A stretch of DNA of 64,000 nt from Clostridioides phage LIBA2945, in sequence record MF547663.1, one strand, 5' to 3'. This document shows, one piece after another, positions 50,872-57,447 of this stretch. Both the position numbers and the translations under genes were made by a program. Under the pieces are notes generated by a model. That model was not told where the DNA came from. It saw only the letters and a program-made list of their open reading frames with translations, and searched no databases. Numbering within the stretch: the first letter of the stretch is position 1; each line of letters opens with the position of its first letter.

Positions 50872-51060
50872 CTACTCAGTTATTTTTTCTATTATTATTT
50901 TTTCACCATCAAAAGTTAATGTAACTTCCCTATCTAATTTAGTTATATCCATTTGTTTAACCCAATTAGTAGGAATTGTTATTCTATTTGTGACTGAGCC
51001 TTTACTTGCAGTTCCTCCACTTGTAGTAAATAATACTTTTGCTTTTCTCTGCTCATACAT
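50872..51060 (-). CDS. AbrB/MazE/SpoVT-like swapped-hairpin DNA-binding protein
   Basis: TNRITIPTNWVKQMDI...DGEKIIIEK pattern, 62 aa. Confidence 0.5.
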   Translation of the reverse strand: MYEQRKAKVLFTTSGGTASKGSVTNRITIPTNWVKQMDITKLDREVTLTFDGEKIIIEKITE

Positions 51061-51154: not shown

Positions 51155-51487
51155 CTATTTAATTGATTTTAACTTTGCTATTTCATTCCAATTTTTAGAT
51201 GTAGCCATTTCTACAAAGTTCATGTCATTTTTTAAAGTGTCTATTTTTTCTCCAACTTCTGTTATGCCTTCCATGTTTCTAGCAACTTGATTATAAGTTA
51301 AGTCTAGTTTCTTTTTAATTTCTTCTTGCCCTTCTTTTAAATCACTAAGTTGGTTTTCAATCCCATCAAAACGACCATCCATACTATCTAGTCTAGTATT
51401 AATCCATTTTATTTCTCCTTGTATATCATTAATACTAGTATCCATTTTTTGTAATAATTCTAATATTTTTTCATCCATGCCGTTCAC
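51155..51487 (-). CDS. hypothetical coiled-coil protein (paralog A)
   Basis: N-terminus MDEKILELLQKMD identical to 52809..53186. Confidence 0.35.
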   Translation of the reverse strand: MNGMDEKILELLQKMDTSINDIQGEIKWINTRLDSMDGRFDGIENQLSDLKEGQEEIKKKLDLTYNQVARNMEGITEVGEKIDTLKNDMNFVEMATSKNWNEIAKLKSIK

Positions 51488-52051
51488 ACTCCTATTTTAT
51501 TATTATATCATAATTTAAGTGTTGTATTCTAACACTTACTAAAATAATCTAATAAATAGTTTAAATTATACTAGTAAATATTAGATAGTTTATAACCATG
51601 TAGGTGTCAAGCAGTACAAACTATAATTTTAATGCTCAATCTTTAGTACTTTTTATAACGCAGTACCTCACAACTGCTATGTCATATTAAATTGTATTGA
51701 GTGCCATTATAGAAGCAACTAAGTTGATACCTCAATTTTTTGTAGGCTTTAATTGGAAACCTTTATTAATTTTATTTACTTAATTACTTAATGTTGGGAA
51801 CACCTCACCAACTGGTATGACTAATTCATTTTTGTAGTTAAAAAATGAAGAAAAAACTATGTGTAATATTTGTGTTGTGTGCCTTTCACCATTCACACCA
51901 TTAAAAGGTCAACTTAAAGGTAGTAATTTTTTAATAGTAGTTTAATATTTTTTAATAGAACCCTTTAAGATATTAGCTAGAGTTTTAAGAAGGTTCTTTG
52001 CCTGTTACTTCATTTGAGAGGTGGCTTTGTGTTTTCTTGTTCTCCCTTGCT

Positions 52052-52175
52052 ATGATTTAATTATATATCCAAACGGATATATTGTCAATATTTATTTTTA
52101 TAATTTAATAAAAAATATATCTAAACGGATGTTAATATATTTAGATATACGACCGATTGGATATATAACTGATTG
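52052..52175. promoter_or_regulatory. candidate operator cluster: inverted repeat ATATCCAAACGGATAT plus two further AAACGGAT / TTGGATATATA half-site copies
   Basis: seen directly 50-170 bp upstream of the XRE gene at 52225. Confidence 0.4.
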
Positions 52176-52224
52176 TTCTTAATAAATATATATGATATTA
52201 TAATAAATATAAAGAGGTGATAAA

Positions 52225-52542
52225 ATGATTAGTGATAGATTAAGAGAACTAAGAAAAGAAAAAGGCTACACAATTAAAGAGTTAGCACAAATTATAAATG
52301 TTTCAGATATTTCAATCAGTAGATATGAAAACAACAAAAGGGATGCAGATATAAAAACATTGAAAGAGTTAGCAAAATTATATGATGTATCATTAGACTA
52401 TATAACTTGTCTTACAGATAATAGAGAAAATATACAACTTGAAGAAGAAGAAGTCAAACTATTAGATAATTATAGAGAGTTAGACACTAAAAGTAAAACA
52501 ATAGTACAAGAACAAATAAATACATTAAAAAAACTACTGTAA
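52225..52542 (+). CDS. XRE-family HTH transcriptional regulator
   Basis: YTIKELAQIINVSDISISRYE HTH, 105 aa. Confidence 0.7.
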   Translation: MISDRLRELRKEKGYTIKELAQIINVSDISISRYENNKRDADIKTLKELAKLYDVSLDYITCLTDNRENIQLEEEEVKLLDNYRELDTKSKTIVQEQINTLKKLL

Positions 52543-52696
52543 GCTAGACATATATATTCTAGCTTATTTTTATATTCAATTTTAAAAACTAAAGGTATAA
52601 ACATAAGGCAATCATATTACAATACGCTTAAAATGGCATATAATAGCTTGTATAATATATTATATTGTGTAGAATGTATTATAATATAACCATATC

Positions 52697-52763
52697 AAAA
52701 AAATCCGACAACCTGCATACTTATATAGATATATATATCAATATGCGAGTCATCGGAAAAATT
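52697..52763. repeat. 66-bp palindromic site, copy 1 (A7-TCCGACAACCTGCAT-24 bp core-ATGCGAGTCATCGGA-A5TT)
   Basis: paired with 60324..60389; arms swapped relative to copy 2. Confidence 0.6.
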
Positions 52764-52808
52764 AAAAATATAAAAGTACTTAACAAAATGTCAAGTACTT
52801 TTTATGTA

Positions 52809-53186
52809 TTATTGTAATTTTATTTTTATTTCTTCTAATTGTTCCATATTTCTAGCGACTTGGTCGGTTGCTCCATTTAGCTTTCTATTAATCTTAATTA
52901 CTCTAGTTTCTATTGCATTTAACTTAATGTCAACCACATCAAAGTTATCTTTAATAGAAGTCATTTCCTCTGCTGTTGAAATAGATTGATTATATAGTAT
53001 ATCTTGTTTCTTTTCAATACTGTCAAGCCTATTTTCTATACTATCAAATCGCTTGTCCATGTTATCAAGTCTGTTGTTAGTTTCAACCTGTCCAATTTTT
53101 AAATCATTGATGTCCTGTTTCATTTCAGTAATATTACTATCCATTTTCTGTAATAATTCTAGTATCTTTTCATCCATCACGACCAC
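52809..53186 (-). CDS. hypothetical coiled-coil protein (paralog B)
   Basis: N-terminus MDEKILELLQKMD shared with 51155..51487. Confidence 0.35.
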   Translation of the reverse strand: MVVMDEKILELLQKMDSNITEMKQDINDLKIGQVETNNRLDNMDKRFDSIENRLDSIEKKQDILYNQSISTAEEMTSIKDNFDVVDIKLNAIETRVIKINRKLNGATDQVARNMEQLEEIKIKLQ

Positions 53187-53721
53187 GCTCCTTTTATTAT
53201 TATAACATAATAGTTAATGTTATATACAGCTAATTGTCGTATTCTAATCAACTTGTGTCATTATAAGTTTTCATTTGTCACACTTCCTTTTGATTTTATT
53301 TAATTGATGATTTAATAATACATTACTTTCCAATTTTTGTCAATACGTTCTATTATATTTATATATTTTATTTAGTTATTGTCCTTGTAAAAATATTGCT
53401 TATCATATTGATATCACTAGCTTATGAGTACATAATTGTGTGAATTATTTTTTATATCTACTATAGTATGCGAATTTGATTAATGATTAAGAAATGTAGT
53501 GATTATGTGATAGATGCTAATAATGTAATGATAATATTAAGCTAATAATGTAAGAGTTCTATTTCTATAAACTTTTTTATTTAATAATGAACACAAAAAA
53601 AATAATAACTCATGCTATCATCTTTAAAATAACATAAATTATTATTTCTAATAAAAAGTAAGATTTAGTACCTTTTTATTCGTTTTTAACAAAGTAATTT
53701 CTTTTCTTAACATACATTAAT

Positions 53722-53753
53722 AACGTCGTATAATAAGATGATTATACGACGTT
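53722..53753. other. perfect 11-bp inverted repeat AACGTCGTATA / TATACGACGTT with 10-nt loop
   Basis: seen directly in a 1.45-kb noncoding stretch. Confidence 0.5.
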
Positions 53754-53773
53754 GACCTTAAAAATAGAAGAAA

Positions 53774-54007
53774 GGGGGCTATTTTTAGACTTTAGTATCA
53801 AATGATATTCATTATCATTTTGTAGTCCTTTTTCTTCTACATCCCAAATTCCATTCAGCCCTTAAAATAAACATTTATACAAAATTACACCACTAATTCA
53901 AATTTTTAAACATACACTCATGAACAATTTCAAACCGTCTCCGAGTATTATAAAACAGTGTTAATTCAATACTTATTTTTCATTAATCATGATAAAAAAA
54001 TAGCCCC
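53774..54007. repeat. 12-13-bp inverted repeats GGGGGCTATTTTT / AAAAATAGCCCC bracketing about 210 bp of noncoding DNA
   Basis: seen directly. Confidence 0.45.
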
Positions 54008-54448
54008 ATCTATGTTTTGAACCTATGTTATAAGGCTAAAGCATGAACAGGGGGTGTATGTTTTATTTTAATTTATATGAACTATATAAAATATATATTA
54101 TATCCTATAAATCAACTATAATTGTTATAAAATAATTTTAAATAGTGTATGTTTTAAATTTGAACATCTCAAAATCCTATAGACAAAATTTTAATTCTAT
54201 CAAGTTATCATTTTTTACTTAAAATTCAATACAATTCAAACAAAATATACTTCATGCAATTTATTCAAGATTAAAACATATAAATATGCCTATTTTATAG
54301 AAAAATATATAGTAATTTATATAATTTTTCATATCAATTTTCGTAGACACTATACTCCAGAAAATCAATCTAAAATGATAAATTTTATAAAACAATTTTC
54401 AAATTTAAGTAGTGTATGTATGGTTTTTATAAAAATTATTAATATTTA

Positions 54449-54602
54449 ATATGCAATTGCATATAAATTATATTAAAATTTATAATTAAATATAAAACAA
54501 ATTGTAATATAACCTTCTTTACGCTTGTAGTATATTTTGTATTACAATTATAGTTTAATAGTATATATAATTTATATTAAATTTGCATTGTAATTATATA
54601 CC
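54449..54602. promoter_or_regulatory. centromere-like (parC-like) repeat cluster: ATGCAATTGCAT palindrome plus three or more TTGTAAT(T)ATA / ATTACAA half-sites
   Basis: seen directly upstream of the RHH-ParM gene pair. Confidence 0.4.
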
Positions 54603-54650
54603 AATTGAAATATAATTAAACTAAATGAGCTATAAAAGGAGGGGATTTTT

Positions 54651-54884
54651 ATAAAAAAGGATACTTATAATTTACAGATACCTATTCCAATAGAATTAGC
54701 TGATAAATTAAAATCACTAGCTGAAAAGGATGAAAGAAGTTTAAGATTGTATTGTAAAAGAGTACTACAATTACATGCAGATGAAATTTATAATAATAAT
54801 AATGATATTGACGAAGCTAATACTAATAATCAAAATGAAACAGCTAAAAAAAGAAAAGTAGGAGCTTTAAAACCACAAAAATAA
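54651..54884 (+). CDS. ribbon-helix-helix DNA-binding protein, ParR-like partition adaptor
   Basis: IPIPIELADKLKSLAEKDERSLRLYCKRVLQLHADEI is a typical RHH (CopG/ParG-like); no ATG/GTG/TTG start, probable ATA start 8 nt after AAGGAGGGG; immediately upstream of parM-like gene. Confidence 0.45.
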   Translation: MKKDTYNLQIPIPIELADKLKSLAEKDERSLRLYCKRVLQLHADEIYNNNNDIDEANTNNQNETAKKRKVGALKPQK

Positions 54885-54901
54885 TTTAGGGGGATTTACT
54901 T

Positions 54902-55846
54902 ATGAAAAAAGAAAAAGTAAAAGTTGCAGTAGACTTAGGTAATAGTATGCTTAATTCAGCAGCATATATTGAAAAAGAATTAATTTTAAAAAAGTTACCA
55001 AATAAACTTCAATTTGAAAAAACAATATCACCAAAAGCACGTGTTATGAAAAAAGATGGTAAGGTAATCTACCTAGGTGTAGGAGATTTAAATAATAATG
55101 TTCTTAAACATACTAGAAAAAATTTATTAGAACAAGTTTTAGTCATGATTCATGAAATATTTCCTGATGAGGATAATCTTTCTGTGGAATTGATAACCGG
55201 ATTACCACCAACTCAAATGTTTAATGAAAAATATTTGAAATTATTTCAAGATATTTTTATTCAACCTGGAGAAATAAAAATTACTATTGATGGAAAACAA
55301 AAAACTTTTGAAATACTTAATGTTGATGTTAAAGCAGAAGGATATTCAGGATTTATTTCACTTGTAGACAAGATTACTACTAAACAGAATATTCTAGGAA
55401 TAGATGTTGGAGGCAGTACTACAGATTTATGTAATTATGAATATGATTATGAGGATGATATGTACTATCCTAATGTAACAGACACTATAGAAAAAGGAAT
55501 CATAGACTTTGAAACAGCAATAGCAAATAAATTTAATAGTAAAAATGGTGCAGATATAAAAATAAGTCAAATAGATGTAATATTAAGAAACGATATTGAT
55601 GTTATAGAGTATGAGGGTTCTAAATACAAATTAGATGATTATATTGATGCCATGTACCCTATTATTGATGATATGATTAATAAAATCACTAATAAATTTG
55701 GTCAGCTAGATGGATATTATGTTGTTGGTATTGGAGGGGGCTATAAAACATTTAATAAATATGCTAATCAATTTATAAGTAAACAACTAGAAGTCGATGA
55801 TGATTCTCGTTTCTATGCAAATGTAATTGGATACCTTGAACAATAA
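54902..55846 (+). CDS. parM: actin-like segregation ATPase (ParM/Alp family)
   Basis: phosphate-1 VAVDLGNSMLN and phosphate-2 GIDVGGSTTD motifs, 314 aa. Confidence 0.65.
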   Translation: MKKEKVKVAVDLGNSMLNSAAYIEKELILKKLPNKLQFEKTISPKARVMKKDGKVIYLGVGDLNNNVLKHTRKNLLEQVLVMIHEIFPDEDNLSVELITGLPPTQMFNEKYLKLFQDIFIQPGEIKITIDGKQKTFEILNVDVKAEGYSGFISLVDKITTKQNILGIDVGGSTTDLCNYEYDYEDDMYYPNVTDTIEKGIIDFETAIANKFNSKNGADIKISQIDVILRNDIDVIEYEGSKYKLDDYIDAMYPIIDDMINKITNKFGQLDGYYVVGIGGGYKTFNKYANQFISKQLEVDDDSRFYANVIGYLEQ

Positions 55847-55944: not shown

Positions 55945-55972
55945 AAAGGTCACTAATTTAGTGACCTTTTTA
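55945..55972. terminator. bidirectional terminator AAAGGTCAC-TAATTTA-GTGACCTTT with T-run
   Basis: between convergent parM-like and rep genes. Confidence 0.55.
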
Positions 55973-56599
55973 TTATTTCTTTTGTTGTTTTTTTATTATC
56001 TCTCTCATCTTACTCGCACCTGATGCAATTTCTTTTTCAGACATAGAATATATTTCTAATTCAGTAAATCCATTTTCTTTTAGTACTTGTATATCTTTTT
56101 CTTTTTGTGTTATAATATTATTATCATTAATTGAATTTAAAGTTTTTCGTTTCGAGTCATCTGTTGAAGCTGCTACTTCATCAGGTGACTTTTTACTTTT
56201 CTTCTTTTCCCTTTTCGTCTTCATGTAACTCTCTGCATTTTCTCGAATTTTTGACTTAGACATTGCAATTTCATACACGTTATTTCCATATAAATTATTT
56301 TCATTTTGGATTCTATAAACCTTAATAAATCCATTTTCCTTTAAGACCTCAACATATTTTATAAAAGCATTTTTACTTATGTTCAACTCTCCATAGATTG
56401 TTTCCATTCTTGGATGACAGTATTTTTTATTACCTGCGAAACTAGCCAGATAAGCGTAAATAGCTTTTGAGTAAATAGGTATGTCCTTATTTCTCATAAG
56501 AAATTTTGGAGATATACCATAACCATCCGAAAGAATACTATCTTCCTCTAGTCTAACATCTAAAACCTCACCATCTTTAATTTTTATTATATTATTCAT
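55973..56599 (-). CDS. RepA_N-type (Firmicute plasmid) replication initiator-like protein
   Basis: N-terminal winged-helix block GISPKFLMRNKDIPIYSKAIYAYLASFAG...METIYGELNISKNAFIKYVEVLKENGFI; adjacent iterons. Confidence 0.45.
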   Translation of the reverse strand: MNNIIKIKDGEVLDVRLEEDSILSDGYGISPKFLMRNKDIPIYSKAIYAYLASFAGNKKYCHPRMETIYGELNISKNAFIKYVEVLKENGFIKVYRIQNENNLYGNNVYEIAMSKSKIRENAESYMKTKREKKKSKKSPDEVAASTDDSKRKTLNSINDNNIITQKEKDIQVLKENGFTELEIYSMSEKEIASGASKMREIIKKQQKK

Positions 56600-56608
56600 A
56601 AGTTACTC

Positions 56609-56848
56609 CTAGTACAATTTGTATTCATATACAAATATTCCATTTTCAAATTTTTTATTAACTTCAAGATAGCCCTTGTCTTTCAATTCGTTCCATGCCA
56701 TTCTAAACGAATATGCTCCCAAATCTAAATAGTCCATCAAAAATTGTTTAGAGAAGTAAGGTTCGTTTTTAAATGCTGAGATAGTTCCATAAAGACCTTT
56801 AGCTTTTAAGCTAATACTTTTACTTTTGAATATATCTTCTTTTACCAT
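56609..56848 (-). CDS. small winged-helix protein related to the Rep N-terminus
   Basis: KAKGLYGTISAF...FLMDYLDLGAYSFRMAWNELKDKGYL. Confidence 0.3.
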   Translation of the reverse strand: MVKEDIFKSKSISLKAKGLYGTISAFKNEPYFSKQFLMDYLDLGAYSFRMAWNELKDKGYLEVNKKFENGIFVYEYKLY

Positions 56849-56988: not shown

Positions 56989-57128
56989 TACCATCTCATG
57001 GTACGCCCATAGCATGGGATATCGAAAAATTCGATGTACCACGAGATGGTACATCGAAAGAATCGCTATATTTCAACGTTTTTTCGATTTTTGCCTCGAT
57101 ATACCACGAGATGGTACATCGAAAAATT
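56989..57128. promoter_or_regulatory. iteron cluster / candidate replication origin
   Basis: TACCACGAGATGGTACATCGAAA twice (57037, 57102), an inverted near-copy TACCATCTCATGGTA (56989), palindromes CCCATAGCATGGG and ATCGAAAAATTCGAT. Confidence 0.5.
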
Positions 57129-57447
57129 AAAGTATCTGAAACAATTTAAAAATTATATAGTTATGCACAGATAAAAATACAAATTGTTAATAAAATTGCA
57201 ACTTATCAACATGTTATCAACAACTTACTAACAGCTTATCAACAGGGAATAAAACTGAATAAAATACTAAATTGACAAAAATAATATAAAATGTTAATAT
57301 ATAATTATAGATAAAATATTAAATTAATAGGAGGAAATTTATATATGAAAAACATTTAACAACTAAATAAAATTAAAAAACAAAATTGAAACGGAGGTTA
57401 AAATATGAAGAAAAGTAAAGAATACAAAAAGATGAAAGGACTAGAAG

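Follow-up and report, generated by a model that had tools for sequence, protein, structure and literature searches.

How a large phage that is kept as a low-copy circular plasmid could reach both daughter cells of Clostridioides difficile is the question raised by the locus at positions 54,449-55,846 of a 64,000-nt stretch of Clostridioides phage LIBA2945 (sequence record MF547663.1; the whole stretch is called the window below). A first-pass annotation, made from the sequence alone, had read this locus as a type II (actin-like) partition locus with a repeat array, a ribbon-helix-helix (RHH) adaptor, and a ParM-like ATPase. Our analysis upheld that reading in its main parts, as the motor was identified by profile and fold, the adaptor by fold and synteny, and the motifs upstream of the adaptor gene varied together with the adaptor class. 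What we see here is very likely a type II (ParMRC-like) partition cassette, in the order centromere-adaptor-motor, belonging to a phage that lives as a low-copy circular plasmid. Folds and families of the proteins, the extent of the adaptor open reading frame (ORF), the conserved synteny, and the adaptor-class-specific enrichment of motifs were obtained directly. The motor gene of these phages is known from before, as are ParM and RHH cassettes in Bacillus plasmid-prophages, and the current understanding of type II partition is unchanged. The cassette probably provides the adaptor and centromere that had been missing for the parM-like marker gene of the big C. difficile phages and, if the reading is true, explains the persistence of a 130-kb phage as a plasmid.

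The stretch of approximately 3 kb around the locus shared 99.3% identity with Clostridioides phage LIBA6276 (134,243 bp, circular), 99.0% with a circular C. difficile record of 132,180 bp labelled "plasmid", and 87.7% with Clostridioides phage ES-S-0107-01. By these comparisons, the window matches a member of the group of circular C. difficile "big plasmidial" siphophages of about 130 kb, and its gene neighbourhood agreed with the published description of that group. Big C. difficile phages are extrachromosomal and carry a parM-like gene (PMC5786514; PMC6127314). Because that gene was reported for the big plasmidial siphophages in 2018 (PMC5786514), the motor gene had already been published; a description of the adaptor and centromere of these phages was not found in the searchable literature. 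The earlier claim that such loci are a hallmark of plasmids and plasmid-prophages agreed with the documentation of this element as a circular extrachromosomal phage.

The 314-residue ORF proposed to encode a ParM/Alp-type actin fold was present with both of the motifs cited for it, VAVDLGNS and GIDVGGSTTD, and profile and fold searches agreed on its identity. The predicted protein matched the PHROGs family phrog_691 "partition protein" over its full length (1.5e-51). The Pfam model MreB-like_C scored above its gathering threshold (31.4 bits, cutoff 27.8) and ALP_N slightly under its own (23.0 bits, cutoff 26.3), and both are present as precomputed domains in most homologues. When a profile of 34 homologues was compared with the PDB, it matched Clostridium botulinum CBg/Cbc-ParM at 5e-17, Alp12 at 5.5e-7, and the ParM chains 4a61, 4a62, 1mwk, and 5aey at 2e-6 to 2e-5, with Hsp70 reaching only about 0.6. 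The single sequence had Alp12 (4apw) as its top PDB match (E-value 1e-7), a weak similarity covering residues 44-179 only. The AlphaFold (AF2) model reached a predicted local distance difference test score (pLDDT) of 95 and a predicted template modelling (TM) score of 0.90. Its Foldseek matches in the PDB at ranks 1-23 were all segregation actins or an archaeal relative, including Cbc-ParM, Ta0583, R1 ParM, pCBH ParM, pSK41 ParM, Alp12, Bt ParM, Alp7A, CorM, and AlfA, and Hsp70 and MreB ranked below them. Residues D11, G13, E146, D168, G170, G171, T173, D175, and G278-G280 were invariant in the 34-sequence alignment, and the nucleotide-binding motifs were intact (phosphate 1 DxG, catalytic E, phosphate 2 DxGGxTxD, and adenosine GGG). 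By sequence and predicted fold, the motor is a ParM/Alp-group actin-fold ATPase. The first-pass annotation had named placement in a non-segregation actin or Hsp70 family, such as a sugar kinase, as one outcome that would overturn its reading, and the profile and fold searches led to the plasmid-segregation actins instead. Matches to sugar kinases and other ASKHA proteins were far weaker than those to ParM, which ruled out such an identity, and the label "heat shock protein 70" in the LIBA6276 record is wrong because Hsp70 matches were likewise far weaker than ParM matches.

The adaptor gene posed a different problem. The mechanical ORF list and both public records gave only a 45-residue ORF from TTG 54747, and the 77-residue RHH protein that had been placed directly before the ATPase is present provided that translation begins at ATA 54651. 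An in-frame TAA lies upstream of this ATA at 54633, and 17 nt separate the stop codon of the adaptor ORF from the parM ATG. The ATA was conserved in 10/10 related sequences, including the locus L004, whose ParM is 83% identical, and so was the longer arrangement GGAGG(G/A)GATTTTT-ATA. Between the ATA and the TTG, all four substitutions relative to ES-S-0107-01 were synonymous, as were 8 of the 12 differing codons relative to L004, where the annotated TTG reads TTA. An exhaustive HMMER search returned 26 representatives, and 23 distant small homologues (54-122 residues) aligned from their own Met, with M-S-K-x-x-Y-N-L-Q-I-P-I opposite I-K-K-D-T-Y-N-L-Q-I-P-I in the LIBA2945 protein. Judged from these comparisons, the 77-residue reading is correct, because the ATA and its Shine-Dalgarno sequence are conserved, the changes upstream of the TTG are biased towards synonymous ones, the TTG is TTA in L004, and the homologues start at the equivalent Met.

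Two other start codons were rejected. TTG 54747 lacks a Shine-Dalgarno sequence, its counterpart TTA in L004 cannot initiate, and the substitutions upstream of it are synonymous-biased; ATT 54645 falls within the Shine-Dalgarno sequence. Because of the ATA start codon, the adaptor has been mis-annotated systematically: public databases (NCBI and other sources) store it as "hypothetical protein" fragments of 43-62 residues (clusters P0091-P0096), one 45-residue cluster was found on 356 contigs, and the PHROGs family phrog_35171 was built on the 45-residue fragment. The longer reading corrects this widespread error and exposes a modular ParR family. We know of no characterised ParR with an ATA start, and the conserved ATA behind a strong Shine-Dalgarno sequence probably keeps ParR translation low. 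Several other adaptor ORFs (L013, L014, and L017-L019, class B as defined below) likewise had no ATG at the aligned start, their frame reading N-L-S-R-(I/V)-V-L-T-F; initiation there may be at TTG or at some other non-ATG codon, and non-canonical initiation may be common in the adaptor family.

Searches of Pfam and NCBIfam with the 77-residue protein gave nothing meaningful, and fold evidence was therefore required for the adaptor. The AF2 model, a monomer in which an intersubunit sheet lies out of reach, had an extended N-terminus and helices at residues 14-26 and 31-58, with pLDDT 96-98 over residues 11-40 and a disordered linker and tail. Its top Foldseek matches were all RHH proteins (ORF56 of pRN1, Arc, CopG, CdbA, and CopA(SO), PDB entry 3ft7 being among the matches), with target-normalised TM scores of 0.7-0.86 and root-mean-square deviations of 1.1-1.6 A. 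The family profile gave weak PDB matches to the RHH proteins ORF56, AvtR, and HP0222 (E-values 0.014-0.6), and Pfam hits among family members were sub-threshold: RHH_5 (best 7.6e-5), FitA-like_RHH (1.2e-3), RHH_1 (2e-3), TraY, and Arc. In its predicted fold the adaptor is an RHH protein, outside the curated sequence families. The first-pass annotation, which had proposed RHH and ParR profiles as the check, was borne out on the fold by AF2 and Foldseek, and no Pfam RHH or ParR model scored above threshold.

Comparison across loci connected this adaptor to its motor. Adaptor loci were collected by way of ParM homologues, as a single ParR query returned one viral locus only. A small RHH-type ORF stood immediately 5' of parM in 13/13 of the more distant relatives' loci, in which ParM identity fell from 75% to 42%; in L004 no gene had been called at this place, yet the same ATA-start ORF was present. 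The DNA-binding domains of the adaptors fell into a class A with YNLQIPI, to which the LIBA2945 adaptor belongs, a class-A variant with VYNLQ(I/V)K, and a class B with SR(I/V)VLTF. Adaptors paired with the ParM clade of LIBA2945 all had a C-terminal tail of the K-V-G-x-(L/F) type or close to it, class A and class B alike, and the LIBA2945 adaptor itself has the pattern KKxKVGxL. In locus L008, a class-A domain was joined to another tail (ESFDWSLDD) and stood beside a ParM only 26% identical; tails of this type were common to several members of the adaptor family. This co-variation suggested that the tail of the adaptor goes with the motor and its N-terminal domain with the DNA, as would be expected of a ParR-like adaptor.

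The motifs upstream of the adaptor genes differed in the same manner. Upstream of class-A adaptors, ATTG[ACT]A[AT]T was present at 2-5 copies per 210 nt, where approximately 0.5 were expected (shuffle p <=0.023 in 5/6 loci, those loci representing about four independent lineages), and upstream of class-B adaptors at 0-1 copies. Conversely, 6-11 copies of TTTTATAAA lay upstream of class-B adaptors, around a TTGACA/TATAAT promoter, against 0-2 upstream of class-A adaptors, and the VYNLQ(I/V)K subclass had TAATGAC repeats instead. Motifs of the form ATTG(T/C)A(A/T) or ATGCAATTGCAT were found upstream of the class-A adaptors in L004, L005, L008, and L016 and not upstream of class B. The 12-bp palindrome ATGCAATTGCAT of the window recurred upstream of the class-A adaptor in L016, where ParM is 52% identical, and ATTG(T/C)AAT sites recurred in L005 and L008. 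The type of upstream motif thus co-varied with the DNA-binding class of the adaptor, and the assignment of these sites to a candidate centromere is supported by this sequence pattern.

This co-variation bears on whether the RHH protein is a mere transcriptional repressor of the Arc/CopG kind, with the sites serving as its operator and with neither a centromere nor contact with ParM. In favour of this, its closest folds (Arc, CopG, and ORF56) belong to repressors and antitoxins, there is overlap between the sites and the promoter, and the degenerate sites number just 5-8 or so. However, adaptor and actin remained strict neighbours over the whole 42-100% range of ParM identity, repression needs neither a long disordered linker nor a conserved C-terminal tail, the tail tracked the ParM clade through swaps of the DNA-binding domain, and the centromeres of known ParMRC loci double as operators. 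We regard a role as repressor only as highly improbable, and the co-variation of adaptor and motif makes it less likely, as it does the chance origin of the repeats weighed below.

Upstream of the adaptor gene of LIBA2945, the sites lay where the first-pass annotation had placed a repeat array and were enriched against shuffled sequence, yet the array it had described is a loose set of palindrome and half-sites. Three exact copies of ATTGTAAT within 196 nt, spanning 94 nt, were matched in 1/1000 dinucleotide shuffles, and AATTGTA (with at most one mismatch) occurred 14 times in that 196 nt, the densest place of the whole 64 kb. The -35 hexamer of the sigma-70-like promoter lies inside the last ATTGTAAT site, an overlap that fits autoregulation as in other ParMRC loci. 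This promoter was conserved in L003 and L004 and is a consensus match only, as promoter-like sites were not enriched in the AT-rich region (45 against 39.6 expected). A terminator-like hairpin appears to close the two-gene operon. Just 5' of the class-A sites, at 54424-54436, stands a conserved palindrome, TTTTTATAAAAAT, whose core TTTTATAAA is the class-B repeat unit; it may have arisen by chance in this AT-rich sequence or be left over from a centromere swap.

Several observations weigh against a partition cassette as we read it. The adaptor-first gene order is the arrangement of phage AlpAC and not that of R1 ParMR, and the 77-residue protein matched no ParR or RHH model of Pfam. In the bacteria tested, ATA initiates translation very weakly, and the amount of ParR made is therefore uncertain. 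The upstream motif was defined post hoc, after inspection, and the sites are few, degenerate, and irregularly spaced, with centres approximately 19-48 bp apart. In the comparison of the window with L004, motif cores showed 83% conservation and spacers 73%, a difference that did not reach significance (Fisher p = 0.12). Tandem Repeats Finder and a repeat finder detected no tandem or regular array in 54449-54602, and a phasing of about 22 bp, suspected from L004, was dropped in view of the 19-48 bp between site centres in the window. Because of the post hoc motif, the irregular spacing, and the absence of an array in these searches, the region is better described as a loose cluster of half-sites than as a tidy iteron array. 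The same post hoc choice, non-significant footprint, and lack of a tandem array favour the view that the repeats are chance features of intergenic DNA with 15% GC and that the true ParR site lies elsewhere or consists of the palindrome alone; furthermore, ATTGTAAT was not over-represented across the window (17 against 13.6 expected). Against this stand the rarity of three exact copies in shuffled sequence, the top density in 64 kb, and the recurrence of ATGCAATTGCAT in L016 and of ATTG(T/C)AAT in L005 and L008, and we judge a chance origin unlikely.

Under the partition reading, ParR dimers, with their ribbon-helix-helix fold, would occupy the region 54450-54611 by binding its palindrome and ATTG(T/C)A(A/T) half-sites. 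The resulting nucleoprotein complex would also cover the operon promoter, by which ParR would repress its own operon. The flexible C-terminal KKxKVGxL tails of ParR would capture ParM, and ATP-dependent ParM filaments would grow by insertional polymerisation between paired copies. These filaments could then drive sister prophage plasmids apart, into opposite halves of the cell, ahead of division, which would have a stabilising effect.

The closest solved ParM, by the profile match given above and by fold (rank 1, TM score 0.75-0.82), belongs to Cb-cParMRC/CBgs-ParMRC of C. botulinum (PDB 7x3h, 7x54-7x59), although identity to the LIBA2945 ParM was approximately 19% in the structural alignment. 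That system has a small ParR and a palindromic-repeat parC beside the operon, and ParR shifts parC in electrophoretic mobility shift assays (bioRxiv 10.1101/2022.03.07.483215; PMC12270681). Its parC lies upstream of parM-parR and it is thought to be chromosomal, whereas in LIBA2945 the adaptor precedes the motor and the system is on a phage-plasmid. Alp12 of the Clostridium tetani plasmid pE88 (PDB 4apw) is likewise a clostridial plasmid actin. ParMRC of R1 (1mwm, 4a61, 4a62) resembles the cassette in its actin-fold motor (fold E-value about 1e-17, profile 2e-6 to 2e-5), in an RHH adaptor with a C-terminal tail, which in LIBA2945 is presumed to bind the motor, and in repeats, in LIBA2945 a candidate centromere, that enclose the promoter. 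R1 has ten regular 11-bp iterons and the order parC-parM-parR (PMC2241845), in contrast to the order parC-parR-parM with a palindrome and loosely spaced half-sites here, and the LIBA2945 adaptor had no detectable sequence similarity to the R1 adaptor or to characterised ParRs.

The closest biological analogues are the Bacillus plasmid-prophages, such as IEBH and vB_BtS_B83, which combine a ParM-like protein with a small RHH adaptor and a putative centromere (PMC8026635). They too are temperate siphophages kept as circular plasmids, but they belong to another host genus and the element studied here is much larger (about 130 kb); no near sequence relatives were detected in the phage collection. 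The remaining comparison is with AlpAC/alpS of the Corynebacterium prophage CGP3, in which the adaptor gene precedes the actin gene and the adaptor binds short repeats in the promoter region (PMC4446434). AlpAC shares with the cassette its phage origin and its adaptor-first order, but AlpAC works in replication after induction of CGP3, an integrated prophage. By analogy, actin and adaptor might primarily move or position phage DNA during lytic replication rather than act in partition at division. The arrangement of adaptor then actin, with repeats in the promoter region, was noted as unlike ParM-ParR loci (PMC4446434), and the authors of the big-phage paper made the same AlpAC comparison (PMC5786514). 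However, CGP3 is normally integrated, whereas the element studied here persists as a circular plasmid, for which a segregation function is required; no further partition ATPase was noticed beside the replication-like module, and the closest solved relatives are the ParMs of ParMRC systems. AlpC and AlpA were absent from the sequence and fold matches of the LIBA2945 proteins. An AlpAC-like primary role is in our estimation distinctly unlikely, and such a role could coexist with partition. In function the cassette is most likely a type II partition system, ordinary but complete. In practice, it could be used to stabilise C. difficile vectors, and the classes of ParR tail and motif could help to predict incompatibility among clostridial phage-plasmids.

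A bolder joint proposal goes beyond this reading, and we hold it to be doubtful. The ATA with its near-perfect Shine-Dalgarno sequence would act as a deliberate translational throttle or sensor setting the ParR:ParM ratio in this phage-plasmid clade, and the ParR family would be plug-and-play, with free recombination among three or more DNA-reading variants and two or more motor-binding tails; or the cassette would double as a DNA-positioning device of the lytic cycle. If the plug-and-play part were true, the short tails and motifs would be what determines incompatibility among clostridial phage-plasmids.

Table 1. Positions in the window of the candidate partition cassette and its predicted elements.
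Feature	Position	Strand	Basis
Candidate centromere/operator (parC-like)	54450-54611		Site list, enrichment, recurrence upstream of class-A adaptors
16-bp palindrome ATATGCAATTGCATAT	54450-54465		Sequence
ATTGTAAT sites	54501-54508, 54541, 54587	+, -, +	Sequence
TTGTATTACAA	54536-54546		Within TTGTATTACAAT (54536-54548, convergent half-sites)
TTGCATTGTAAT	54583-54594		Sequence
CAATTGAAAT	54602-54611		Sequence
Sigma-70-like promoter TTGTAA-17 nt-TATAAT	54588-54616	+	Consensus scan, 10/12 matches
Shine-Dalgarno AAAGGAGGGG	54636-54645	+	5 nt 5' of ATA start
parR-like adaptor gene	54651-54884	+	77 residues, ATA start; RHH ~5-47, low-complexity linker, C-terminal KKRKVGALKPQK tail
parM-like actin-fold ATPase gene	54902-55846	+	314 residues; profile, fold, and alignment evidence
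Intrinsic-terminator-like hairpin	55945-55969	+	11-pair stem, 4 GC pairs, T-rich tail; ~100 nt past parM stop

Downstream of the cassette and convergent with parM are two adjacent genes for HTH_36 proteins, at 55973-56599 (-) and 56609-56848 (-). Both products matched PHROGs families annotated as "DnaD-like helicase loader" or "replication initiation protein", and the 79-residue product matched only the first 81 of the 262 positions of phrog_22134. The pair may be a split or duplicated initiator, and together with the par locus these genes would form a plasmid-maintenance module. Their place next to the cassette, like the GC-skew minimum described below, speaks for the partition reading. Further along, at 57199-57244, four tandem 11-bp units CAACTTATCAA contain TTATCAACA three times. 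The DnaA-box consensus is TTATCCACA, from which TTATCAACA differs by one mismatch. These units, which lie between the replication-initiator-like genes and a luxR-like gene, are candidate iterons or a candidate origin of the plasmid-prophage. Between 56990 and 57130 there are two direct copies, each of about 27 bp, of GAT(G/A)TACCACGAGATGGTACATCGAAA, both with the inverted repeat TACCA-N5-TGGTA, and a related ACCATCTCATGGTA at 56990; the repeats are unusually GC-rich for the region, and one copy scored as terminator-like on the minus strand (57058-57030).

On the other side, cumulative GC skew reached its minimum at about 52000-54000, adjoining the par locus, and gene orientation changes there from minus on the left to plus on the right. 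This combination fits a replication origin, or at least the point of divergence of two transcription arms. The 1.46 kb at 53187-54650 contain no ORF of 45 residues or more. Within them, the blocks 54125-54149 and 54425-54449 were 96-100% identical even to L004, above much of their flanks, and a direct repeat of approximately 35-42 nt, ending in TAGTGTATGT, occupies 54118-54152 and 54378-54419. More copies of GTGTATGT are found at 54054 (+) and around 53710 and 53910 (-); the copies are clustered, and across the window the motif was not enriched (6 against 6.1 expected). An Rfam search in E-value mode over 51-58 kb gave two sub-threshold chance matches and no known RNA in the ORF-free region. 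A regulatory RNA, a set of promoters, or part of an origin are possibilities for this stretch.

Two paralogous small proteins, encoded at 51155-51487 (-) and 52809-53186 (-) and unannotated in public records, have the N-terminus MDEKILELLQKMD in common and a repetitive, coiled-coil-like sequence. They flank an XRE-type helix-turn-helix gene at 52225-52542 (+). Finally, a gene at 50872-51060 (-) encodes a 62-residue AbrB/MazE/SpoVT-type protein, named "putative PemI" in the LIBA6276 record, which may be part of an addiction module or a regulator near the maintenance region.

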